Shown here: piece after piece, positions 300-16,600 of the stretch
Layout: each line of letters begins with the position of its first letter
How positions within the stretch are numbered: position 1 is the first letter of the stretch
NCBI GenBank assembly: GCA_026419015.1
Contig: JAOAAF010000033.1
Location: 1-16,600, forward strand
DNA: 16,600 nt
Direction: 5' to 3'
Source of the DNA: Spirochaetota bacterium
GTDB taxonomy: Bacteria > Spirochaetota > UBA4802 > JAGODF01
The notes under the pieces: model-generated
Database searches by the model: none
Seen by the model: only the letters and a program-made list of their open reading frames with translations
Told to the model about the DNA's origin: nothing
Position numbers and translations under genes: made by a program

Positions 300-887
300 A
301 TGGGCAAAGTTGCGCTATTTGGTGGGACATTTAATCCCGTACATATGGGACACCTAATCAATGCCCAGTTTTTAATCAACGAGATGGATATTAATGCATG
401 TATTTTTATTCCTGCGCGGTATCCCGTTCATAAATCCATTGAACATGCTGCAAGCGAAGAAGATCGCTTTCAGATGTTGATGCGTGCAATTGAGAAGAAC
501 GTTAATTTCGAGGTATCGCGAATCGAGCTTGACAGCGACATGCCATCCTACACCGTGATTACTCTTGAAAAGCTTGTGCAAAAATATTCGCGCGATGAAA
601 TTTTTCTTGTCATTGGCGCCGATTCGTACAATCAGCTCTCAACGTGGCGTGAATATCGAAAAATTTTCGCCCTTTCAAAGATAATTGTACTTCGAAGGCC
701 TGGGGATGAAATCGATAAAGATCGATATGCAAAGGATGGGGGAAATTTTATTTTTGCGAATAATCCTTTGGTTGGGATCAGCTCGAGCTATATACGCCAG
801 CTCGTTTCGATTGGGAAATCAATTTTGTATTTGGTTCCCGATCGCGTAAGGGAATATATTATACAAAGGGGGCTGTATACGCGTTGA
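300..887 (+). CDS. nadD: Nicotinate-nucleotide adenylyltransferase (NaMN adenylyltransferase)
   Basis: 195 aa. N-terminus KVALFGGTFNPVHMGHL matches the (H/T)xGH nucleotidyltransferase motif and the GGTFDPxHxGH signature of NadD. RBS GAGGGGGA lies 4-5 nt upstream of the ATG. The stop codon overlaps the start of the next gene (TTGA). Confidence 0.9.
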   Translation: MGKVALFGGTFNPVHMGHLINAQFLINEMDINACIFIPARYPVHKSIEHAASEEDRFQMLMRAIEKNVNFEVSRIELDSDMPSYTVITLEKLVQKYSRDEIFLVIGADSYNQLSTWREYRKIFALSKIIVLRRPGDEIDKDRYAKDGGNFIFANNPLVGISSSYIRQLVSIGKSILYLVPDRVREYIIQRGLYTR

Positions 888-2002
888 AGAAAAAAATTGT
901 CATTACCGTTGCGATTCTCATCATTGCGATAATATCGCTTACTGCCTATCGGTATTATTATCTCATCACGCGGAATATCGTTGATGTGCTTATTGCACAA
1001 AAACGATTAATAAATATCCTTGTTGCAGGGAGTAATGTCTATCGGGAAAATCGTCATAGATTTTATTGCATCGTTTCCGTGAATCCTGAAAATGGAAAGA
1101 TTGGCATAACTTTTTTACCCCCTGAATTACAGATCGCGATGGGTTCCCGAGGAACTGATGTGCGTAAATTGTGCGAAATTGATTTTTCAGATTTTACAGA
1201 GTTGCGCGAATCCTTACAGCGCGAAATAAAATTGAATGTTCCTTTCTATGTTGAATTATATGCGGTCGATGTGGAAAGAATTGTGGATTTTGTTCGAGGA
1301 GTGGATATTTTTATCCTCGATCAAATTCCTCTTGGCAAAGGGTATATCTTTGGGCAGAATTATTTTGATGGCAGAAAGGTTTTAAAATATATTAATGAGG
1401 TTCCAGGCGGTTCAATTTTTAAAAAGTTCGATCGCATTCAAGATGTCGCATTTGCAATGTATTCCTCGAAAGAGCGATTCGATGGAGTATTTTCTTATGA
1501 ATTTGTGCAAGAACTAATAAAATTTTGCAAAACAAATATCATGCCACAAGAACTGTATTCTCTCGGGAAATTAGTTTTGAAAAAAGGTGTCCTAAGTTGC
1601 ACCGTTTTACCATGTGAAGTCGATGATTCGGGGCAGTATCGTTTTGATGAGATTTCTTATAAAATATACGAAAAAGAATTTTTAACCTCTCTTGTGAAAG
1701 ATGAAGAAAATGTGAGTGCGATTAAAGTTAAAATCCTCAATGGTACCGATATCCCGGGATTGGCGCGAAAAATGCGCAATCTTCTCATTCGAGAGGGACT
1801 CAATGTAGTCGAATTTGGCACCTCGCCCTATCCAAAATTACCATATTCGATTTTGATTAACCAAAGAGGAAATTACATCAACACAAACAAGACAGCTGAA
1901 TTAACAGGCATTAAACATATTTATCATGTTATCGACAATACTCAGTTGCACGATGTGCTCATTATACTTGGGAAGGAAAGTTTAAAAGGTGAGGAAGAAT
2001 AA
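884..2002 (+). CDS. LCP (LytR-CpsA-Psr) family protein with an N-terminal membrane anchor and a C-terminal LytR_C-like domain
   Basis: 372 aa. TTG start in a 4-nt overlap with the nadD stop. N-terminus MKKKIVITVAILIIAIISLTAY is a single transmembrane helix. The core NILVAGSNVYRENRHRFYCIVSVNPENGKIGITFLPPEL resembles the LCP motif NILLLGSDSR...DTIMLVSVNPK..VTLLSIPRD. The C-terminal block VKILNGTDIPGLARKMRNLLIREGLNVVEFGTSP resembles the LytR_C domain. Called from memory of these families, without a profile search. Confidence 0.65.
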   Translation: MKKKIVITVAILIIAIISLTAYRYYYLITRNIVDVLIAQKRLINILVAGSNVYRENRHRFYCIVSVNPENGKIGITFLPPELQIAMGSRGTDVRKLCEIDFSDFTELRESLQREIKLNVPFYVELYAVDVERIVDFVRGVDIFILDQIPLGKGYIFGQNYFDGRKVLKYINEVPGGSIFKKFDRIQDVAFAMYSSKERFDGVFSYEFVQELIKFCKTNIMPQELYSLGKLVLKKGVLSCTVLPCEVDDSGQYRFDEISYKIYEKEFLTSLVKDEENVSAIKVKILNGTDIPGLARKMRNLLIREGLNVVEFGTSPYPKLPYSILINQRGNYINTNKTAELTGIKHIYHVIDNTQLHDVLIILGKESLKGEEE

Positions 2003-2366
2003 GATTACAGAACGAAAGATATTAAATATTGCAAAGAGATGTGCTGAAAAAATTCATGAAAAAAAAGGAGAAGATATATTACTTCTCGATTTGCGCAAGG
2101 TTCACAATTATCTCGACTATTTTTTAATTGTAACGGGTAATTCGCTCTTGCATTGTCGTGCATTGGCACGTGAGGTTCAACGATTTATGCAAGAAGTTGG
2201 TTTCCCTGAACGCATACGCCCTCGCCTTGATTCGGGATGGATTGTGCTTGACTACAATGAAATTGTGGTACATGTCTTTACAAAGGAGCTTCGCGATCAT
2301 TATCAGTTGGAATACTTATGGGCGGATTCGAAACGCATCGAGTGGAAGTGTGCAGGTGATTCATGA
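1989..2366 (+). CDS. rsfS: Ribosomal silencing factor RsfS (Iojap/DUF143 family)
   Basis: 125 aa. GTG start overlapping the last 14 nt of the LCP gene. The sequence ILNIAKRCAEKIHEKKGEDILLLDLRKVHNYLDYFLIVTGNSLLHCRALAREVQRFMQEVG..WIVLDYNEIVVHVF matches the RsfS pattern (..AEDKKAEDIVVLDVR..S.ITDYFVIASG.S.RQV.AIA..V...G....DW.L.D.G.VVVHIF). Confidence 0.85.
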   Translation: MRKNKITERKILNIAKRCAEKIHEKKGEDILLLDLRKVHNYLDYFLIVTGNSLLHCRALAREVQRFMQEVGFPERIRPRLDSGWIVLDYNEIVVHVFTKELRDHYQLEYLWADSKRIEWKCAGDS

Positions 2367-3001
2367 AGAAAAATTCCGAAATAATGGAAAGATTAATTCG
2401 AAACATCAATCATGAAATAAAAAACCCTCTTACTGTCATACGCGGTTATGCGCAGCTTCTTACGATGAAAGAGGCAAACGCTGAGTTTCAAAAAAAGACT
2501 GGAATGTATATCATAGAAAATGTCGATCTCATCGACGAACGCCTCTCGGGGTTGTATCGTGCTTTTAACCTTCCTTCAGAAGAAAACGTATTGGTTAATG
2601 TATTGGATGAAATATCGTCAATAATCGAAAAGTATGAACCAGAGAAGAAGTCACGCATTCATATTGTTGCTGAACCGAATTGTGAAGTCCAACTGTGCAA
2701 AATGGCATTTCGCAGAACTATCGAGTGCCTAATTGGGGGGTTTAATTGGAATCGGAATCCAAATTCGGTAATTGAAATTTCTATAAAGAAAGTAAATGGC
2801 AACCTTGAGTTTTTTATAACGTATTCAAACACAGATTTTTCGAATTTTTCTCAAGAGTGGTTTTATTTGCCTTTTGTCGATAAAAATGTTTTTTGTTCGG
2901 GAATAGAGATTTTTGAAGTGTATTGTATTTCTGAGGCACAGGGGTGGAATTTTCAGATTATAAACGATGACAATAAAAATGGATTTTCGATTCGGGTATG
3001 A
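2363..3001 (+). CDS. Minimal NtrB-like histidine kinase core (HisKA plus a degenerate HATPase_c-like domain), with no membrane or sensor domain
   Basis: 212 aa. ATGA overlap with the rsfS stop. The H-box NHEIKNPLTVIRGYAQLL starts at residue 16 and closely matches the E. coli NtrB H-box AHEIKNPLGGLRGAAQLL. The downstream region aligns by eye with the NtrB catalytic domain: WFYLPFVDK against LFYPMVSGR, and the C-terminal NGFSIRV strand. The N-box Asn positions (IECLIGGFNW), the G1 box (SNTDFS in place of DNGPGI) and the G2 box (CSGIEI in place of GTGLGL) are not conserved. Confidence 0.7.
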   Translation: MKKNSEIMERLIRNINHEIKNPLTVIRGYAQLLTMKEANAEFQKKTGMYIIENVDLIDERLSGLYRAFNLPSEENVLVNVLDEISSIIEKYEPEKKSRIHIVAEPNCEVQLCKMAFRRTIECLIGGFNWNRNPNSVIEISIKKVNGNLEFFITYSNTDFSNFSQEWFYLPFVDKNVFCSGIEIFEVYCISEAQGWNFQIINDDNKNGFSIRV

Positions 3002-4404
3002 TTGGCGATTATCGAGTACTCATAGCTGATGATGAACCAGGAGTTCGTCAACTTCTGACAGAAGTGTTGGAAAGTACATTCAATGTTGAAAGCGTTGAAC
3101 GGGGCGATATTGTACTAAATAAAATACACGAAGGCCAATACGATATTCTCATTCTCGATTTAGAACTCCCTGGGCTTAACGGTATAGAGATTCTCAAAAC
3201 GATTCATGAAAAGAAAATGAAAATCACTGTGGTAGTAGTCACTGCATCGAATAACATTGAAACTGCAATAACGACCATGAAGCTCGGTGCGTATGATTAT
3301 ATCGTTAAACCGTTCGATACGGAGAAGCTTTTGGTGATAATGAAAAACATTGCTGAAAAGCTCGATTTAGAAAGGGAAGTTGATACGCTACGGGAGCAGG
3401 TTGGCGAGAAATATCGGTTCTCAAATGTAATAGGAAAATCTCCCGCAATGCAGAGAATATTTGCAACGTTAGAACGAGTTATTGATACTGATAGCACAAT
3501 TCTCATTTCTGGCGAAAGCGGCACTGGGAAGGAAGTAATAGCCCGAGCAATTCATTACAATAGCAATCGTCGGCAATACCCATTCAGATCAATCGATTGC
3601 AGCACTATTCCTCAGGATTTAATTGGAAGCGAACTGTTTGGACACGAAAAGGGTGCTTTTACGGGAGCTGTGTCGCGGAAGATTGGAAAATTTGAAGTTA
3701 CATCAAAGGGAACGCTTTTTCTTGACGAAATCAGCAATCTTTCAATTGATATGCAGGCGAAACTTTTGCGCGTTTTGCAAGAAAAAGAATTCGAGCGCAT
3801 TGGGGGAAATCAAATCATTAAAGTCAATACGCGAATTATTGCCGCTACCAATAAAGATTTGCGCGAATTGGTACGCCAAAGTCGGTTTCGTGAAGATTTA
3901 TACTATCGGCTTAACGTTGTTCCAATATACTTGCCTCGTTTGCGCGATCGAAAAGAAGATATTCCGCTTTTTATTGACCATTTTCTGAAAAAGTATAATG
4001 CCGAATATGGAAGGCAGGTCTCGATCGATATAAAAGCGCGTATCTATTTGACCAATTATAATTGGCCTGGGAATGTACGCCAGCTTGAGAATGTAATAAA
4101 GCGACTGGTATTGCTTTCATCGGGAAAGGTTGCTGATCTTGAGCAGGTAAAAATGATATTAGAGTTTGAAGGAGAACATCGCATTGCAACCAATATCGCT
4201 TCTCAAGAATTCAATTTTCCCAGCGAAGGGCGAATTTTAAGCCTTGAGGAAATGGAAAAAGCCTATCTTGAGCGCGTCTTAGAAGATTGCAATTATAATA
4301 TTTCGCTCACTGCGAAGGTGTTAAAAATTTCGCGAAAGACAATGCACAATAAACTTAAAAAGTATGGAATTCTTATTCGAAAGACGACAAATGCATCGTA
4401 TTAA
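2998..4404 (+). CDS. Sigma54-dependent response regulator / bacterial enhancer-binding protein, NtrC-like (REC + AAA+ sigma54 activator + Fis-type HTH)
   Basis: 468 aa. ATGA overlap with the kinase stop. The REC domain keeps its conserved acidic residues (ADDEP, phospho-acceptor D in ILILDLELPGLNG, T in VVVTAS, K in YIVKPF). The AAA+ domain has Walker A GESGTGKEV and the sigma54-contact loop GAFTGA (EKGAFTGAVS). The C-terminus has a Fis-type helix-turn-helix (ISLTAKVLKISRKTMHNKLKKYGI). The length equals that of E. coli NtrC (469 aa). Confidence 0.9.
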   Translation: MIGDYRVLIADDEPGVRQLLTEVLESTFNVESVERGDIVLNKIHEGQYDILILDLELPGLNGIEILKTIHEKKMKITVVVVTASNNIETAITTMKLGAYDYIVKPFDTEKLLVIMKNIAEKLDLEREVDTLREQVGEKYRFSNVIGKSPAMQRIFATLERVIDTDSTILISGESGTGKEVIARAIHYNSNRRQYPFRSIDCSTIPQDLIGSELFGHEKGAFTGAVSRKIGKFEVTSKGTLFLDEISNLSIDMQAKLLRVLQEKEFERIGGNQIIKVNTRIIAATNKDLRELVRQSRFREDLYYRLNVVPIYLPRLRDRKEDIPLFIDHFLKKYNAEYGRQVSIDIKARIYLTNYNWPGNVRQLENVIKRLVLLSSGKVADLEQVKMILEFEGEHRIATNIASQEFNFPSEGRILSLEEMEKAYLERVLEDCNYNISLTAKVLKISRKTMHNKLKKYGILIRKTTNASY

Positions 4405-4544
4405 AGGCTCTTTTCGAGTTCCTCTATCCCTTTTTGGAGAATTGCGTATTCTTTTGAGCCTTTCGGAAAGTTTTTCATGTATTTTTTAAAATATGCAATT
4501 TGCTCTTCTTTCCATTTGCGCATATCAAAATTATTTGTAAGCAT
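4401..4544 (-). CDS. Candidate 47-aa small protein (MLTNNFDMRKWKEEQIAYFKKYMKNFPKGSKEYAILQKGIEELEKSL), antisense to and overlapping the response-regulator stop codon
   Basis: Hand-translated ORF. ATG at 4544-4542 and TAA at 4403-4401. GGGGGA (a Shine-Dalgarno-like run) lies 4 nt upstream of the ATG. The peptide is lysine- and glutamate-rich with amphipathic helix character. It is absent from the ORF track (shorter than 60 aa) and has no similarity I can recognise. Confidence 0.3.
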   Translation of the reverse strand: MLTNNFDMRKWKEEQIAYFKKYMKNFPKGSKEYAILQKGIEELEKSL

Positions 4545-4702: not shown

Positions 4703-6127
4703 TTATTTCATTGTGTATGATTCAAAATCAGGATATCCTTCCATTCCATGTTCGCCAATGTCGAGCCCTCTCAGTTCTTCTTCTCGACTTACCCGAATGC
4801 CCATCGTCGCATGCAATATGACCCATATGATCCAACTGAGGATAAACACAAATACGCCAACAATAACCACTCCTACTAATTGGTTTGCAAATGAAAGAAT
4901 TCCACCCCCATAGAAAAGTCCTACTGGAGGTTGGTTTTGTCCACCAGCCCATGGTGGTGCTGCAAATAGGCCAACTGCCAACGTACCCCAGACGCCATTC
5001 ACCAAATGCACTGAAATAGCGCCCACGGGATCGTCTATTCCCCATCTATCAATTGCAAGTACGAAGATAACTACCAAAACACCAGCAACGGCACCAATGA
5101 TGATCGCCCCCCCTGGGGAAACCCAGCTACAGGGAGCAGTAATTGCAACCAGACCGGCCAGTGCGCCATTTAATATCATCGAAAGATCTGGTTTCCCTAA
5201 GGTAATCCAGGCAATAATTGTTGCACTGATGGTTCCGGCAGCAGCAGCGAGATTTGTGGTCACAGCAATGCGCGCAATGTCTGTCGCAGATGCTGCCATG
5301 GTTGAGCCAGGATTAAACCCAAACCACCCAAACCAGAGAATAAAAACGCCAAGCGTTGCAAGCGTCATGCTGTGACCTGGAATTGGATTTGGTGAACCAT
5401 CGGGGTTGTATTTGCCAAGTCGAGGTCCCAAAACAATTGCACCAGCCAATGCTGCCCAACCGCCCACAGAATGGACAACTGTTGAACCAGCAAAATCCCA
5501 AAATCCTCTCTGAGCTAACCATCCGCCACCCCAGATCCAATGTCCGGTAATTGGATAGATAATTGCGGTGAGCAATACGGAAAAAATGAGAAATGCGATT
5601 AGTTTTATGCGGCCACCCACTGCTCCAGAAACAATCGTTGCCGCAGTTGCGCAGAATACGAGCTGAAAGAAAAATTTTGCAAATAACGGAACTCCCGCCC
5701 AATTGAGTGCGCTGTACACTCCTTGATATGCACTGCCAGTTGCGGGGCTGTTGTCTGGACCAGATAGCATCCATAATCCTCGATATCCCATAAATGCATT
5801 TCCATCGCCAAACATCAAACCCCATCCAATAAACCAAAAAGAAAGGGAAGCGATTGCAAAGACGATAAAGTTTTTCGCCGATATGTTCACGGAATTTTTT
5901 GCCTGCTGAAGACCTGATTCGACCATTGCAAAACCAAGGTTCATAAAAAACACCAAAACCGCGGCGATGAGCACCCACAGGGTATCGGCAATGATTTGTT
6001 GATTTGCGACTGCCGCTTGGATGTCCGCTAATCGTATTTCCGGTACTGTGGGCTCTTCTGCATACAGCGCGGCGCTGCACATTATCAACATTACGATAAG
6101 TGTGATGAGAGTACTTCGCGTTTTCAT
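4703..6127 (-). CDS. amtB: Ammonium transporter (Amt/MEP family)
   Basis: 474 aa. N-terminal signal peptide MKTRSTLITLIVMLIMCSAALYA, then a typical Amt start (TLWVLIAAVLVFFMNLGFAMVESGL) and multiple Gly/Ala-rich transmembrane segments. RBS GGAGG lies 7 nt upstream. Only 15 nt separate it from the glnA stop. Confidence 0.9.
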   Translation of the reverse strand: MKTRSTLITLIVMLIMCSAALYAEEPTVPEIRLADIQAAVANQQIIADTLWVLIAAVLVFFMNLGFAMVESGLQQAKNSVNISAKNFIVFAIASLSFWFIGWGLMFGDGNAFMGYRGLWMLSGPDNSPATGSAYQGVYSALNWAGVPLFAKFFFQLVFCATAATIVSGAVGGRIKLIAFLIFSVLLTAIIYPITGHWIWGGGWLAQRGFWDFAGSTVVHSVGGWAALAGAIVLGPRLGKYNPDGSPNPIPGHSMTLATLGVFILWFGWFGFNPGSTMAASATDIARIAVTTNLAAAAGTISATIIAWITLGKPDLSMILNGALAGLVAITAPCSWVSPGGAIIIGAVAGVLVVIFVLAIDRWGIDDPVGAISVHLVNGVWGTLAVGLFAAPPWAGGQNQPPVGLFYGGGILSFANQLVGVVIVGVFVFILSWIIWVILHATMGIRVSREEELRGLDIGEHGMEGYPDFESYTMK

Positions 6128-6142
6128 CTATACACCTCCTAG

Positions 6143-7606
6143 TTAAATTTCATAGTATAATGCGAATTCCCACGGGTGAGGGCGTAGTGCAATTTGGTCG
6201 ATTTCATTTCGGCGTTTGTATTCAATATAGGTTTCAATAAGGTCTTTTGAGAACACATCGCCCTTTAATAAAAACTCGTGGTCTCGTTCTAATCCTGCAA
6301 TTACTTCTGCTAAACTGCCTGGCGTGGAACGAATGTGTTTTTTTTCTGCAGGGCTAAGCTCATAGATATCATCATCGATTGGATCCGGCGGTTCAATTCT
6401 TTTTAAAATTCCATCCACTCCCGCCATTACCATAGCTGAAAAAGCTAAATATGGATTTGCCGAAGGGTCAGGGCATCGAAACTCGATTCGTTTTGCCTTT
6501 TCGCTTGTGCTATACATGGGTATGCGAACAGCAGCAGACCGGTTTCGTGCAGAATAAACTAAATTGATTGGCGCTTCATATCCAGGCACCAAACGACGAT
6601 AGGAGTTTGTAGTTGGCGCAGCAAATGCTAATACCGCTTCGATATGTGCAAAGAGTCCACCAATAAAATACCTCGCGGTCTCTGAAAGATCTGCATATTC
6701 CCCAAATTTATAAAATAGATTTCGCCCTTCCTTCCATAAGCTCACATGCACGTGCATCCCTGAGCCATTATCCATGAAAATTGGTTTGGGCATAAACGTC
6801 ACTGTTTTCCCATATCGAAAAGCAACGTTTTTAATTATGTATTTATAATTTACAAGGGTATCTGACATTCTCACCAATTCGTCTACACGAAGCCCGATTT
6901 CCGTTTGACCTGCTGTGGCTACTTCGTGGTGATGGAGATCGACCGCGATGCCACATGCGCGCAGTACTTCTACCATCTTTGAACGCAGGTTGTGGAGTTG
7001 ATCGTGCGGTGCAGTAGGGAAATAGCCTTGTTTGTATGGGATTTTATAACCTCTGTTCTCTAACTCGATGCCAGAGTTCCACGATGCTTCTGAAGAATCG
7101 ATTTCGTGAAATGCGCGATGTTGATTTTGATCATAGCGCACACGATCGAAGATGAAAAACTCCGGTTCTGGGCCAAAATAGGCAATATCGGCAACTCCTG
7201 TTGTTCGAAGGTATTCAATGGTTTTCTCTCCAACATAACGAGGATCTTTATGATAGCGGGCTCTTTTCACCGGATCAATGATATCGCAAAGGAACGAGAG
7301 GGTACGATGATCGTAAAAAGGATCGATGTATGCAGTTGAAGGATCGGGGCGCATCAGCATATCGCTCTGATGGATATGCTGAAAACCGCGGATTGATGAT
7401 CCATCAAAACCAGTTCCTACAGTAAAAAGATCTTCGTCGGCTCTGTCAGCAGTAATTGTGTAATGGTGGAGTCTGCCAAACAGGTCTGTAAACTTCAGAT
7501 CGAGAAATTCTATTTTCTTATCCTTTATGATGCGCAGAATTTCAGCAATCGAAATATGAGTTTTGGGTTCCTTTACCGTGTAGATTTCTTCAAATACCGC
7601 TTCCAT
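6143..7606 (-). CDS. glnA: Glutamine synthetase type I
   Basis: 487 aa. The N-terminal beta-grasp domain (LDLKFTDLFGRLHHYTI...GFDGSSIRGFQHIHQSDMLMRPDPSTAYIDPF) and the catalytic domain motifs are typical of GSI. The length matches GSI (about 470 aa), not GSIII (about 730 aa). The C-terminal region DDDIYELSPAE resembles the adenylylation loop NLYDLPPEE. RBS AGGAGGG lies 4 nt upstream of the ATG. Confidence 0.9.
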   Translation of the reverse strand: MEAVFEEIYTVKEPKTHISIAEILRIIKDKKIEFLDLKFTDLFGRLHHYTITADRADEDLFTVGTGFDGSSIRGFQHIHQSDMLMRPDPSTAYIDPFYDHRTLSFLCDIIDPVKRARYHKDPRYVGEKTIEYLRTTGVADIAYFGPEPEFFIFDRVRYDQNQHRAFHEIDSSEASWNSGIELENRGYKIPYKQGYFPTAPHDQLHNLRSKMVEVLRACGIAVDLHHHEVATAGQTEIGLRVDELVRMSDTLVNYKYIIKNVAFRYGKTVTFMPKPIFMDNGSGMHVHVSLWKEGRNLFYKFGEYADLSETARYFIGGLFAHIEAVLAFAAPTTNSYRRLVPGYEAPINLVYSARNRSAAVRIPMYSTSEKAKRIEFRCPDPSANPYLAFSAMVMAGVDGILKRIEPPDPIDDDIYELSPAEKKHIRSTPGSLAEVIAGLERDHEFLLKGDVFSKDLIETYIEYKRRNEIDQIALRPHPWEFALYYEI

Positions 7607-7621: not shown

Positions 7622-8905
7622 TTAATCGAGTTCCTTTTTAACTGGAAGGCTTTTCTGTTCGCTAATGATACGCGTTAAATCGACACCAGTTGCATTGCGT
7701 ATTTGTTCGAGAAATGTGATGACCGTTGAGGTTACATCGCTTACGTGATTTGGAATACCACCATTACCTAATACCACAAGCTTTTCAATTTTTAGATTTT
7801 CGGCAATTGTGCGCGACACGTTATCTACAATATTGGGAAGAATGTGTAGCATAAACAGTTCCTTGCTTGCGCCATCCTGCCATTCGCTGCGCATTTCCTT
7901 TACCGCATTCGCCATCGCAAGCCCCTGTTCTTTTAAATACGATGCTTTGCCGATTGCTTTCAATTCATCGGCTTTCCTTTCGGCCATTGCCGGTACCACT
8001 AAATCAGCGTTGTATTTCAGCGAGTGCACAGCTTCTCGAATTTCTTCGACCTTTTTCTGTTGCAGAAGCGATTCGATTTGCCGTGCATATTCGGCACGCG
8101 CTTCTTTTGCATTCATTTGTTCATGCAAACTCGCGCGAAGTTCCCGGAATGATGTTTCGTATCGTTCTATTTCTGCTTTTGCTTTAAATTCAGCATCTGC
8201 TGCCTTTTGCTTAGACATCGATTCCACAATTTGTGCTTCTGCTTCAGCTTCTGCTTCTTTAATGCGCGCATCGCGTTTTACGATTGCATTTCGCTGTTTC
8301 CCCACAGCTTCAAGATATCCCTGCGAATCGTAGATTTCTTCGATTTTTACTGAGTCGAGAGTAAAGCCTAACTTAATGAGTTCTTCATGTGCCAATTCGT
8401 AAACTTTTCTTTCAAATTCAAGCCGTTTGTAGTTGGCATCTTCTGGGGTAAACGTTGCAATGACACCGCGCAACACACCCTCGATAGTATTTTTGGCTAT
8501 TGTCTCTATTTCGAGTTGTGGTTTTCCAAGAAGCCTTTCAACGGCATTTTCCAGTCCCGCTCCTTCTCGCGAGGCAATTTTTACGTGTGCAATGGCGCGG
8601 ATGAAAAGCGGTATCATCCCATTTGAAAGGGCACCTTCTATCTCAAGGGTGATTGGGATTGTTGCAAGCGAAAGTCTAGAAACTCTTTCGACTATCGGCG
8701 TTCGAAGTCCTACACCACCTCGAATCACGCGGTACCCCACTACTTCCCCTGTTGGGAGCTTTCTTTTTTTTCCAGAAAAAATGAGGATCTCATTTGGTTC
8801 ACAAATCTTTAAATTCACTTTTAGATAAATGAGAATCGTTGCGAACACAAGAATGATGATTGTACCAACAAGTGGCCAGTCAATGGTCGATAAATTGATG
8901 TTCAT
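7622..8905 (-). CDS. Flotillin-like SPFH/band-7 domain protein
   Basis: 427 aa. N-terminal membrane anchor (WPLVGTIIILVFATILIYL), then PNEILIFSGKK (flotillin-like PNEALVxTG start of the SPFH domain). A long coiled-coil follows, rich in E/A/K with an EAEAEAEA repeat, typical of FloT/YqiK-type flotillins. RBS GGAGG lies 5 nt upstream. It is spaced 26 nt from the PII gene and 15 nt from glnA. Confidence 0.75.
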   Translation of the reverse strand: MNINLSTIDWPLVGTIIILVFATILIYLKVNLKICEPNEILIFSGKKRKLPTGEVVGYRVIRGGVGLRTPIVERVSRLSLATIPITLEIEGALSNGMIPLFIRAIAHVKIASREGAGLENAVERLLGKPQLEIETIAKNTIEGVLRGVIATFTPEDANYKRLEFERKVYELAHEELIKLGFTLDSVKIEEIYDSQGYLEAVGKQRNAIVKRDARIKEAEAEAEAQIVESMSKQKAADAEFKAKAEIERYETSFRELRASLHEQMNAKEARAEYARQIESLLQQKKVEEIREAVHSLKYNADLVVPAMAERKADELKAIGKASYLKEQGLAMANAVKEMRSEWQDGASKELFMLHILPNIVDNVSRTIAENLKIEKLVVLGNGGIPNHVSDVTSTVITFLEQIRNATGVDLTRIISEQKSLPVKKELD

Positions 8906-8931: not shown

Positions 8932-9273
8932 TTATCCTATGGCACGCGAACCGCGTTCACCAGTTCGAATGCGAATGCATTCTTCAATTGGAATAATAAA
9001 AATTTTGCCATCGCCAATATTTCCCGTTTTTGCGCCACGCATGATCGCCTTAATGGTTGGTTCAACGTAGTCATCGTTTACGGCTATTTGCAGCTCGACT
9101 TTTTTAAGAAGCTTAATTTCGTGTTTTACACCGCGATATGACTCAGGGTATCCTTTTTGCCTTCCCGAACCAATAGCGTTAACAACGGTCATTAAATTTA
9201 CGCTTGCATCGTTTAATTCCTTTTTTACATCGCCAAGTTTTTCTGGTCTAATAATTGCGATTATCAATTTCAT
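8932..9273 (-). CDS. glnB: Nitrogen regulatory protein P-II (GlnB/GlnK family)
   Basis: 113 aa. [20 protein letters not shown]...[19 protein letters not shown]...[20 protein letters not shown] aligns along its whole length with E. coli GlnB (MKKIDAIIKPFKLDDVREAL...GFGRQKGHTELYRGAEY...GDGKIFVFDVARVIRIRTGE). The T-loop keeps a Tyr at the uridylylation position. RBS GGAGG lies 5 nt upstream. Confidence 0.9.
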
Positions 9274-9472: not shown

Positions 9473-9490
9473 TGTAACAAATTTGTAACA
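9473..9490. promoter_or_regulatory. Direct repeat TGTAACA-N4-TGTAACA (11-bp phase) upstream of the nitrogen operon; candidate regulator binding site
   Basis: TGTAACAAATTTGTAACA at 9473-9490. Repeats are at 9473 and 9484, about 60 bp upstream of the putative -35 box. It reads as TGTNA-N8-TNACA, one base off the TnrA/GlnR-type TGTNA-N7-TNACA box. Confidence 0.25.
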
Positions 9491-9648: not shown

Positions 9649-10443
9649 TTATTTATCAGAAAATTTTGGTTCTCGCTTATTTAAAAAAGCATCTATGCCT
9701 TCTTCTTTGTCAGCGGTTTCGCATAGTGATCCAAAAATTTCCCTTTCATGCCGCTGTCCGTCATAGTAGTCCATGAGCAATCCATCTCGAATTGCTTTCA
9801 TTGCTCCTCTAATTGCCATGCGGCTTTTTTTTGCAATATCAGTGGCAAGTTTTTTTGCCTCCTCTACCACTGTGCCAGCAGATACCGCGCGATTCACTAA
9901 CCCATAGAGTTCCGCTTGTTTGCCGGTTAAAAAATTACCGGTTAAAATGAGTTCATACGCACGGCCTCTTCCAATGAGGCGAGGGGTTCGTTGGGTACCG
10001 CCGAATCCTGGGATAATACCCAATTTTATTTCAGGAAGACCCATCTGTGCATTTTCATCGATAAGGCGAATGTGACAGGCCAGAGCAAGTTCAGCGCCAC
10101 CGCCAAGGCAAAAGCCGTTAATCGCAGCAATGAATGGTTTATCCGCTTTTTCGATGAGATTTAGCACCTCTTGGCCATTTGCGAGAAAATTTATACCTTC
10201 TTGTGCAGTTTTTAAATTTTTTATTTCTTTTATGTCGGCACCAGCGATGAATGCTTTCCCTACCCCAGTGAAAACGACTACTCGAACATTATCGTCAGAA
10301 AGTGCTTTCAACACCGTGTCGCGTATATCATCGAGAATCTGAGTGCTTAGGGCATTCATTGGTGGATTGTTGATTTCCATGAGCGCAATTCCTTTTTCAT
10401 CAACAGAATAGTAGCATTTTTTGTCTTGATTAACAACAGTCAT
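9649..10443 (-). CDS. Enoyl-CoA hydratase/isomerase (crotonase superfamily)
   Basis: MTVVNQDKKCYYSVDEKGIALMEINNPPMNALS...VVVFTGVGKAFIAGADIKE...GFCLGGGAELALACH are the oxyanion-hole signatures of the crotonase fold. The start is placed at the internal ATG (10443-10441), which has GGAGG 7 nt upstream. The longest ORF (to 10506) adds 21 residues with no RBS. Confidence 0.85.
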   Translation of the reverse strand: MTVVNQDKKCYYSVDEKGIALMEINNPPMNALSTQILDDIRDTVLKALSDDNVRVVVFTGVGKAFIAGADIKEIKNLKTAQEGINFLANGQEVLNLIEKADKPFIAAINGFCLGGGAELALACHIRLIDENAQMGLPEIKLGIIPGFGGTQRTPRLIGRGRAYELILTGNFLTGKQAELYGLVNRAVSAGTVVEEAKKLATDIAKKSRMAIRGAMKAIRDGLLMDYYDGQRHEREIFGSLCETADKEEGIDAFLNKREPKFSDK

Positions 10444-10571
10444 TATTTGCCTCCATATATAAAATTTCAAAGAATTTAACGAATACATTTTAGCGCATTT
10501 GTGCAACGCGGTGTCAAATATTTTATTGACATATGTAATTTGCCGATAATCATTTGAACAGGAAAATATGC

Positions 10572-14718: not shown

Positions 14719-16579
14719 ATGGAACAACAAACAGAACAGCAAACGACGCTCATTATCCCATCGGAGAAAATCCCAGAATTTATTCCAATAATTCCAATTT
14801 CTCACAGGCCGCTTTTTCCGGGAATGATGATTCCACTCGTGCTGACGGGCGATCGGATGTTAGCGACGGTAAAGGATATAGTGGATTCACCTTCCAAAGT
14901 TGGCGGTGCGGTGTTGGCAAAAGCTAATGCCGTAGGGCAGAATATTTCCGATTCTCTTTATTCAGTTGGAGTATCTGTCAAAATTTTACGGCTTGCGCCA
15001 ATCGATGATGTAACAGTACAAATCATGGTCAATGCGATTGGGCGTTTTCGACATGTGAAAACAGTTCAAGAAGAGCCAATACTTCGCTGGCAGGTTGCAC
15101 ACCATGTCGATGTGCCGTTGCAGGGAAATGAAGCGAAAGCATACTCTATGGCTATCATTTCTCTTGTAAAAGAATTAATAAAATCGAATTCGCTTTTTCA
15201 AGAAGAATTAAAATTATTTTTAAATCGATTTACTGCAGAAGATACGGGGAAGCTTTCGGATTTTGTTGCTTCAATGACGTCTGCAGAGCCGCAAGAACTT
15301 CAAGATATTTTAGAAACGTTTGATGTGAAAAAGCGCGTTGAGAAAGTATTGCAGCTTTTGAAAAAAGAACTTGAACTCAGCAAATTGCGTGAAAAGATTA
15401 CTAAACAAATTGATGAGAATATTGCAAAAAGCCAGAAAGAATTTTTCCTTCGCCAACAATTAAAAGAAATAAAAAAGGAACTTGGTCTTGAAAAGGATGA
15501 AAAAACCTCCGAAGTAGAAAAATTTCAAGAACGCGCATCGAAATTAAAGTTTAGCGAGGAAGCAAAAAAGAGATTCGAAGAAGAAATTGAAAAGCTTAAA
15601 GTATTAGAACCTCATTCAGCGGAATACGGAGTAAGCCGAAATTATCTCGATTGGCTCACATCTCTTCCTTGGGGTATTTTTTCTGATGATAATTACGATA
15701 TAAAAAAGGCAAGCCGCATATTAGATCGCGATCATTTTGGGCTTGAAGATATAAAGGAAAGAATACTTGAGTTCATCAGCACAGGGAAGATGAAAGGCAA
15801 ATTAACAGGTTCCATTATTTGTTTTGTCGGTCCGCCCGGAGTAGGGAAAACATCAATCGGAAAATCTGTTGCAGAAGCATTGAATAGGAAATTTTTTCGT
15901 TTTTCCCTTGGCGGGATGCGCGATGAAGCAGAAATCAAAGGTCATCGCCGCACATATATAGGCGCGATGCCTGGAAAAATTATTCAGAGCCTTAAGATGG
16001 TGGGCACTGCCAACCCCGTTATCATGCTTGATGAAATCGATAAAATTGGAGCAAGTTACCAAGGAGATCCTGCCTCTGCGCTTCTGGAAGTGCTCGATCC
16101 CGAACAGAATTCTGCCTTCTTAGATCATTATCTCGATGTACCATTTGATCTTTCGAATATTCTTTTTATCGCCACAGCGAATCAATTGGATACCATTCCG
16201 CTCCCTCTGTTGGACAGAATGGAGATTATGAAACTGTCGGGTTATATATTGGAAGAAAAATTGCAAATTGCAAAAAAATATCTCATCCCGAAACAATTGC
16301 GAGAACATGGTTTTAAAAAAGGTCAAGTGAATATTAATCATAACGCGTTAAAGAAAATTATCGATGGATATGCCCGAGAAGCTGGAGTTCGCAGTTTGGA
16401 AAATTGCATTAAAAAGATCATGCGAAAATCTGCCCGGCGATTTGCCGAAGGCGATATGCGGCCTATCACAGTAACACCGGAAAATTTGGAAGAATTCCTG
16501 GGAAAACCTCGATTTCAGGATGAATCGAAGTATTTAAAAAAGATTCCCGGGGTGGTGATGGGCCTTGCATGGACAAGCC
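14719..16579 (+). CDS. lon: ATP-dependent Lon protease, N-terminal 620 residues; truncated by the adapter at the contig end
   Basis: Not in the ORF track because there is no in-window stop. Hand translation from the ATG at 14719 gives MEQQTEQQTTLIIPSEKIPEFIPIIPISHRPLFPGMMIPLVLTGDRMLATVKDIV, a Lon N-domain like [23 protein letters not shown]. It continues through Walker A ICFVGPPGVGKTSIGKSVA, Walker B VIMLDEIDK and sensor regions to ...IPGVVMGLAWTS at the adapter junction. Confidence 0.9.
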
Positions 16580-16600
16580 CTGTCTCTTATACACATCTCC
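16580..16600. other. Synthetic Nextera/Tn5 mosaic-end adapter (read-through)
   Basis: CTGTCTCTTATACACATCT followed by CC, which is the start of the Nextera adapter continuation CCGAGCCCACGAGAC. Confidence 0.9.

Follow-up and report, generated by a model that had tools for sequence, protein, structure and literature searches.

What can a protein built like a sensor histidine kinase do for its response regulator once the residues that should bind ATP are gone? This question is raised by a protein of 212 amino acids (aa) encoded at positions 2363-3001 of the forward strand in a 16.6-kb window, which is one entire contig (JAOAAF010000033.1, assembly GCA_026419015.1) of a Spirochaetota bacterium. 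The gene is followed on the same strand by that of a 468-aa response regulator (2998-4404, +) with REC, sigma-54 AAA+ and HTH_8 domains. The analysis indicates that the 212-aa protein is a histidine pseudokinase, in which a HisKA DHp hairpin is joined to a CA-fold domain that appears to have lost its ATP-binding residues. The role that is tentatively proposed for it is the removal of phosphate from the regulator.

The phosphotransfer half of the protein is well preserved. His17 lies within NHEIKNPLTVIRGYAQLL (H-box at 2408-2428, histidine codon at 2411-2413), and the other residues of an intact HisKA H-box, Glu18 and Asn21, are present together with Pro22. HisKA (PF00512) was the sole Pfam domain found (residues 8-58, 40.1 bits for a cut-off of 26.9), and there was no Pfam match to PAS, HAMP or HATPase_c at E ≤ 0.1. 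A hidden N-terminal sensor missed through a mis-called start was ruled out, because the in-frame sequence upstream is the end of rsfS and the relatives start at the same methionine. In the AlphaFold model, with a predicted local distance difference test score (pLDDT) of 87.9 and a predicted template modelling score (pTM) of 0.82, a two-helix DHp hairpin (residues 1-68, helices 2-35 and 40-68; 2363-2566, +) is followed by an alpha/beta domain, which corresponds to the CA-like domain delimited by the profile mapping described below and its column counts (residues about 75-212; 2585-2998, +). A profile of the first 12 homologues compared with all PDB sequences aligned residues 3-195 to KinB and HK853, and by its fold the protein stands much nearer to genuine kinases of the HisKA type than to the degenerate ones.

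The ATP-binding boxes were mapped with hhalign, by which a profile of 48 family members was aligned to a profile of 40 genuine kinases over 217 columns that span the CA domain (probability 99.8 %, E = 2.6e-29). By this alignment, the C-terminal domain is homologous to the kinase catalytic domain. The N box NlxxNaida aligns to L123-I-G-G-F127-N-W (GGFNW, 2735-2749, +), with F127 in place of the Mg-binding Asn, or G126 in the HMMER alignment to KinB; N128 of GFNW is not in register with that Asn. The G1 box DxGxG aligns to Y154-S-N156-T-D158 (YSNTDFS, 2822-2842, +), where the Asp of DFS takes the place of the second glycine, not that of the adenine-binding Asp, and the G2 box GxGxG aligns to C178-S-G180-I-E182 (CSGIEIFE, 2894-2917, +). 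The F box is retained (FYLPF, 2861-2875, +), including the Lys of FYLPF..K, and the spacing from G1 to G2 is nearly normal, about 2 residues shorter than in genuine kinases. On this mapping, the canonical ATP-binding residues of the protein are lost: it has the HisKA DHp with its histidine, and it does not have the HATPase_c domain with Mg-binding Asn, G1 DxGxG and G2 GxGxG that marks a class I kinase. The first-pass annotation of this DNA, made by eye from the letters alone, had already described a kinase without an input domain whose N, G1 and G2 boxes appeared to be replaced by GGFNW, SNTDFS and CSGIEI, and the alignment places the boxes at these same positions. In the AlphaFold model, residues 156-181 of the alpha/beta domain are coil.

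These substitutions are not a peculiarity of one genome. A word-indexed search returned 12 proteins of 212-216 aa, all of them HisKA-only, and an exhaustive HMMER search of 1.84 billion representatives returned about 45 clusters, defined at 50 % identity, of proteins of 183-220 aa (E from 1e-104 to 5e-15). A step in the E-values parts this family from the ordinary long kinases, which begin at E = 3e-13. Where members are named, they stem from metagenome bins of uncultured Spirochaetota and bear generic names only. In the 48 aligned members, His17 and Asn21 are invariant (48/48), and Glu18 and Pro22 are kept in 47. The ATP-site substitutions recur throughout the 48: F stands at position 127 in 36 members and W at position 129 in 39, Y or F replaces the G1 Asp (position 154) in 47, D replaces the second G1 Gly (position 158) in 32, and E replaces the third G2 Gly (position 182) in 39, with just 2 members that still have G there. 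The G2 glycine G180 is kept in 46. HisKA was matched in all 48 members and HATPase_c at E ≤ 1 in two, with a best E of 0.013, while genuine kinases that are equally short (n = 5, 218-254 aa) gave 72-94 bits for HATPase_c.

Translation of the gene appears to be tied to that of its neighbors, with ATGA overlaps at both junctions (rsfS/pseudokinase and pseudokinase/regulator) and an AGGTGA ribosome site 5' of its start. Decay of a pseudogene was ruled out by the constant length, the residues invariant across the 48 members and the coupled junctions. As judged from the sequences, the 212-aa protein is under selection, a pseudokinase and not a pseudogene.

Concerning the partner, the earlier description of an intact regulator was borne out. 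The protein matches PF00072 (101 bits), PF00158 (239 bits) and PF02954 (50 bits), and it keeps D11/D12, D54 (codon 3157-3159, +), T82 and K104 of the receiver, the Walker A motif GESGTGKE (3511-3534, +), Walker B, GAFTGA (residues 219-224; 3652-3669, +) and HTH_8. The receiver residues are retained in 12/12 orthologous regulators, one of which has DG for DD. The regulator is far better conserved than the pseudokinase, with identities of 88, 75, 68 and 52-59 % versus 52, 36, 33 and 25-29 %. Its nearest solved structures are of the Aquifex NtrC1/NtrC4 type, and its scores lie below the equivalog cut-offs of NtrC (TIGR01818, 428.5 vs 558.6) and AtoC (NF008469, 444.6 vs 714). By its domain content it is an NtrC-family enhancer-binding protein (REC, GAFTGA AAA+, HTH_8).

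The pair occupies a fixed place in the chromosome. In every family locus read (L001-L015, L067-L069, L072 and L073, with identities to the window protein from 59 % down to about 25 %) the order is nadD, the gene of a LytR_C membrane protein, rsfS, the HisKA-only gene and the REC/sigma-54/HTH_8 regulator. In the window, the upstream part of this string covers 300-2366 (+) and consists of nadD (300-887, +), the LytR_C gene (884-2002, +) and rsfS (1989-2366, +), the stop of which overlaps the pseudokinase start. A convergent 47-aa open reading frame (ORF; MLTNNFDMRKWKEEQIAYFKKYMKNFPKGSKEYAILQKGIEELEKSL, 4401-4544, -) usually follows the regulator and is a neighbor of the pair in most relatives. 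Beyond it, the neighbors differ among loci (an enoyl-CoA hydratase gene, ECH; a GidB/SpoU methylase; a CLC channel; and others). The proximity of PII noticed in the first-pass annotation, about 5 kb away and convergent, is real, as PII lies on the minus strand 4.5 kb past the regulator stop. It belongs to a 4.7-kb nitrogen block that stands between the 47-aa ORF and ECH in this contig only. In L001, the closest long relative, the 47-aa ORF is followed by ECH-x-rsgA-ABC-aminotransferase, which is the window minus the nitrogen block, and amt, glnA or PII was found beside the pair in 0 of the 18 relatives' loci whose downstream neighbors were read. The pair belongs to the housekeeping gene string nadD-LytR_C-rsfS, not to nitrogen control.

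Stepping outward through homologues of the regulator, three states of the slot between rsfS and the regulator were found. Where the regulators are 55-91 % identical to that of the window, the slot holds a pseudokinase of 205-216 aa. In locus L070 (5666-7380; a Spirochaetota metagenome-assembled genome, GCA_035367765.1), with a regulator 54 % identical, the slot is empty: rsfS ends 2 bases before the regulator start and no kinase-like gene lies between them, while the regulator keeps all its receiver residues and is still followed by the small ORF. The locus amounts to a naturally occurring pseudokinase deletion. Because L070 has lost the gene and keeps an intact receiver, a donor other than the pseudokinase must be able to serve the regulator. 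In locus L071 (4376-6004; Joint Genome Institute metagenome 3300028029), an outgroup whose regulator is 50 % identical, the slot is filled by a full GAF-PAS-HisKA-HATPase_c kinase of 542 aa, the boxes of which are canonical (NLILNAIQA, DSGIGI, FNPFFTTK and GTGLGL). Among L068, L070, L071 and L073, the nadD, LytR_C, rsfS and regulator of L071 are the most distant from those of the window. The LytR_C protein, of about 370 aa, is always found between nadD and rsfS across the clade, and that of L071 additionally carries a LytR_cpsA_psr domain. More remote regulator homologues (L074-L076, 47-50 % identity) occur in unrelated contexts and were set aside.

The full kinase of L071 is probably the ancestral state, and the simplest reading, which is a likely one, is a path from a sensor kinase to a sensor-less, ATP-blind remnant and then to loss. 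In the H-box and DHp, 48 residues of the window protein align to the L071 kinase at 50 % identity, its CA domain gave no match, and the family profile gives the L071 kinase 69 bits, no better than many unrelated kinases. Because the kinase sequence shows no special link to the L071 kinase, the argument for descent rests on synteny and on the gradient of the regulator and the flanking genes.

Proteins of a comparable build have been described in other bacteria, although the first-pass annotation could name none: Spo0B, ChpT and PhyT are kinase folds with a dead ATP site, and DivL is a histidine pseudokinase (PMC3433190, PMC5898713, PMC4211667). PhyT (formerly PhyP) of Sphingomonas melonis and related alphaproteobacteria resembles the 212-aa protein in its descent from a kinase, its conserved His and its degenerate ATPase domain, and its gene also adjoins that of its target regulator (PMC5898713). 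It was first read as a phosphatase and later shown to be a phosphotransferase, and it also binds and restrains its regulator (PMC5898713). However, PhyT is membrane-anchored, with a periplasmic domain, an HRxxN H-box of the HWE/HisKA_2 type and the anti-anti-sigma regulator PhyR as its target, whereas the 212-aa protein is soluble, lacks an input domain and has a HisKA HExxN box and a sigma-54 activator as its partner. ChpT (Caulobacter) and Spo0B (Bacillus) are dimeric histidine phosphotransferases, and neither is known to be encoded next to the regulator that it targets. Both combine, as here, a DHp hairpin (of a four-helix bundle) that carries a phosphorylatable His with a Bergerat fold that does not bind ATP (PMC3433190). 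This resemblance is one of architecture only and does not extend to family membership; in ChpT the ATP lid is swapped for extra helical turns, whereas the 212-aa protein has near-normal G1-to-G2 spacing and its loss came by substitution. DivL of Caulobacter, which is among the best fold matches, reuses the kinase fold without kinase activity (PMC4211667), but it has a Tyr in place of the phosphorylatable His, which is invariant in the 212-aa family, and it carries PAS input domains.

Regarding gene arrangement, a close parallel comes from another spirochaete. In Borrelia burgdorferi, the gene of the kinase Hk2 lies directly upstream of that of Rrp2, a REC-AAA+-HTH sigma-54 activator, as in the window. 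Hk2 is longer and has an N-terminal PAS-type input region. It differs from the 212-aa protein in that it autophosphorylates in vitro, and so has a working ATP site (PMC1976401). Phosphotransfer from Hk2 to Rrp2 is inefficient in vitro and the hk2 mutant is viable, and other kinases or acetyl-phosphate have been proposed as donors (PMC1976401). Hk2, non-cognate kinases and small-molecule donors have been examined in this role, with acetyl-phosphate made by AckA excluded (PMC4683003), and the source of the phosphate on Rrp2 has yet to be established (PMC1976401, PMC2940757, PMC4683003).

Considering all this, the 212-aa protein would be an ATP-blind, sensor-less remnant of a GAF-PAS sensor kinase, retained as a dedicated, co-translated partner of an NtrC1-like sigma-54 activator. 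Canonical ATP binding should not be possible, and from its sequence and model the protein very probably does not phosphorylate itself from ATP. Because it would have no phosphate of its own making, the DHp chemistry alone, in either direction, would probably act on Asp54 of the regulator, and the catalytic domain, in its remodelled form, would offer a surface for docking or regulation. The direction of flow is more doubtful. A net negative role is tentatively preferred, in which phosphate would be hydrolysed with the help of the H-E-x-x-N motif or taken back by His17; the regulator would then receive its phosphate from an unlinked kinase or from a small molecule. This preference, for a net phosphatase or phosphate sink, rests on several considerations: a bifunctional kinase without its kinase half is a phosphatase and needs no new partner; the H-E-x-x-N motif is invariant (except for Glu18 in one member); the conserved string holds no receiver-only donor; and, since the receiver has stayed intact in the lineage that lacks the gene, another donor must exist. 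A phosphatase-only role with phosphate from another donor had been offered in the first-pass annotation and is, without PII, a plausible and the leading reading. Isolated DHp domains of EnvZ and NtrB keep phosphatase activity. Moreover, the laboratory ChrS pseudokinase is listed as a kinase turned phosphatase (PMC9491836), and Hk2-Rrp2 of Borrelia adds a precedent from a spirochaete.

Several points weigh against a phosphatase or sink. The strict conservation of His17 (48/48) exceeds the need of a purely hydrolytic phosphatase. EnvZ and NtrB mutants without the His retain phosphatase activity, and in many kinases this activity is stimulated by nucleotide bound to the CA domain, which is impossible here. 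In addition, L070 may have relocated the partner elsewhere in its genome. Spo0B, ChpT and PhyT, all three studied proteins of this build, are phosphotransferases (PMC3433190, PMC5898713), and PhyT showed no phosphatase activity in vitro despite having been predicted to be a phosphatase (PMC5898713).

The close and main rival of the sink is a relay in which the protein would act as a histidine phosphotransferase like Spo0B, ChpT or PhyT, His17 taking phosphate from the receiver of an unlinked hybrid kinase or from a single-domain regulator and passing it to Asp54 as a positive step. The shared build of a DHp with a conserved His and a dead-ATP kinase fold, together with the position of the PhyT gene beside its target, is in its favor (PMC3433190, PMC5898713), and the essential invariance of His17 and Glu18 agrees with it, that of His17 suiting a relay better than pure hydrolysis. 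The family models are ambivalent: 27 of the 48 members show a weak match to SPOB_a (PF14689; best E 2.7e-4), but none reaches the cut-off (18.8 bits against 28.1 for the window protein), and HPTransfase (PF10090) is neither among the Pfam matches of the window protein nor among the 25 families listed for the 48 members. A relay would also require a new upstream partner, unlike a phosphatase, while the conserved gene string contains no receiver-only gene or hybrid kinase and the intact receiver of L070 has been kept without the gene. On balance, a relay is considered somewhat unlikely. A protein that works independently of phosphorylation, as a DivL-like anti-activator or scaffold whose DHp and remodelled CA surface would bind or let go of the regulator or sense its phosphorylation state, would explain why new residues (F127, W129, Y/F154, F159, E182, F/Y184 and W195) are conserved at the former ATP site; their conservation suggests a new binding surface, and complex formation by PhyT also restrains its regulator (PMC5898713). 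Yet the H-box His, Glu and +4 Asn are essentially invariant (Glu in 47/48), which points to phosphoryl chemistry, and DivL has lost the His. A mere binder is therefore distinctly unlikely.

The protein could still be an active kinase of a non-canonical kind, in which ATP or another phosphodonor is bound in an unusual way. The F box and the Lys after it, the G1-to-G2 spacing only about 2 residues short and G180 in 46 of the 48 members would fit such an activity, but the Mg-binding Asn, the adenine-binding Asp and most lid glycines have given way to aromatic and acidic residues, which would occupy the pocket or push phosphate away, and HATPase_c is essentially undetectable in the family, so that this reading is very unlikely. 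Extremely unlikely is the proposal of the first-pass annotation, a PII-controlled, phosphatase-only NtrB that governs the adjoining nitrogen operon through NtrC. The likeness to NtrB/NtrC (NRII/NRI) of enteric bacteria consists of an H-box of the HEIKNPL type and an NtrC-family partner with GAFTGA and HTH_8; at 0.3-4.9 kb past the regulator this contig carries PII, glnA and amt, the T-loop Tyr of PII is normal, and in Leptospira interrogans a sigma-54 activator controls amtB (PMC12655853). That activator, EbpA, however has a GAF domain and does not belong to the response regulators (PMC12655853). The 212-aa protein has neither the PAS domain nor the ATP boxes of NtrB, and it reached 27.5 bits against a cut-off of 240 with the NtrB model (NF008293), over residues 9-58 (the H-box) only; the AtoS and PhoR models scored higher. 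Both proteins of the pair are far below the equivalog cut-offs, and the linkage to glnA and PII is not conserved. Nor could a sigma-54 promoter be assigned to the nitrogen operon. The 375 bases 5' of PII contain no GG-N10-GC and just sigma-70-like hexamers, a bare GG-N10-GC scan of the intergenic regions of the window gave no convincing -24/-12 site, a scored scan anchored on GG/GC in the window and 10 relatives' loci gave no convincing or positionally conserved sigma-54 site, and a search for TGGCAC-N5-TTGCW that tolerated as many as 3 mismatches returned 82 hits where 68 were expected. Since the nitrogen block is unique to this contig, no -24/-12 element precedes PII and the NtrB and NtrC scores fall below their cut-offs, the sequence evidence leads to the conclusion that the pair is not NtrBC and that its nearness to PII is an accident of this genome.

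A bolder reading is also conceivable, although it is unlikely: the former nucleotide pocket may read a new signal, such as a metabolite or partner protein tied to the growth-state genes of the nadD-rsfS string, and gate the flow of phosphate to or from a highly conserved, possibly essential activator in a large branch of the Spirochaetota. If the pair is orthologous to Hk2-Rrp2, there would be a natural genetic explanation for the failure so far to establish the Rrp2 donor, and a minimal system in which to find it. Kinase folds blind to ATP have been studied in few cases (Spo0B, ChpT, PhyT and DivL), each of which changed the understanding of its pathway. The present family is an independently derived, minimal (212 aa, soluble), HisKA-derived one, tied to a single sigma-54 activator and comprising about 45 clusters. 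With a natural state before it (the full GAF-PAS kinase) and after it (the gene lost) in one slot, it provides a clean system for the study of a histidine kinase core without ATP, and it bears on who phosphorylates the sigma-54 activators of spirochaetes, Rrp2 of Borrelia included. For annotation, it should be noted that histidine kinase names given from a HisKA match alone may mislabel proteins that are not kinases, and that the proximity of glnA and PII in a single contig is no evidence of NtrBC function.

Some minor features of the window deserve mention. The 47-aa ORF, which has no Pfam match, stands opposite the regulator in L007-L011, L067, L068, L070 and L073 and has a strong ribosome site. 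A CCGATA-type motif that resembles the -10 element of sigma-28 is found 30-80 nucleotides 5' of it in 7/7 loci read.

The nitrogen block, all on the minus strand, comprises amt (4703-6127), glnA (6143-7606), the gene of a flotillin-like SPFH protein (7622-8905) and PII (8932-9273). In the order PII, flotillin, glnA, amt, with gaps of 15-26 nucleotides, it looks like one operon, and the flotillin gene between glnB and glnA is an unusual arrangement. Upstream of PII, the element TGTTACAAATTTGTTACA (9473-9490, -) lies about 60 nucleotides ahead of a sigma-70-like TTGACC-17-TATTTT. It is one base off TGTNA-N7-TNACA, the consensus of GlnR/TnrA-type sites.

At both contig ends a Nextera transposase mosaic-end adapter is present (AGATGTGTATAAGAGACAG at 1-19 and CTGTCTCTTATACACATCT at 16580-16598), and because of it the terminal bases are a library artefact and not genome. 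The Rfam and tRNA scans found no RNA genes in the window. The segment from 14.7 to 16.6 kb looks free of ORFs because the ORF lists skip those that cross an edge; it is actually coding, with a lon protease gene (about 14720-16600, +) that runs off the 3' end of the contig. After PII comes ECH (9649-10506, -), and beyond it rsgA, an ATP-binding cassette (ABC) ATPase and a class IV aminotransferase, in that order. The ECH ORF has 285 aa from a TTG start, its orthologues have 264-265 aa and its Pfam match begins at residue 37; translation probably starts about 20 codons further downstream.

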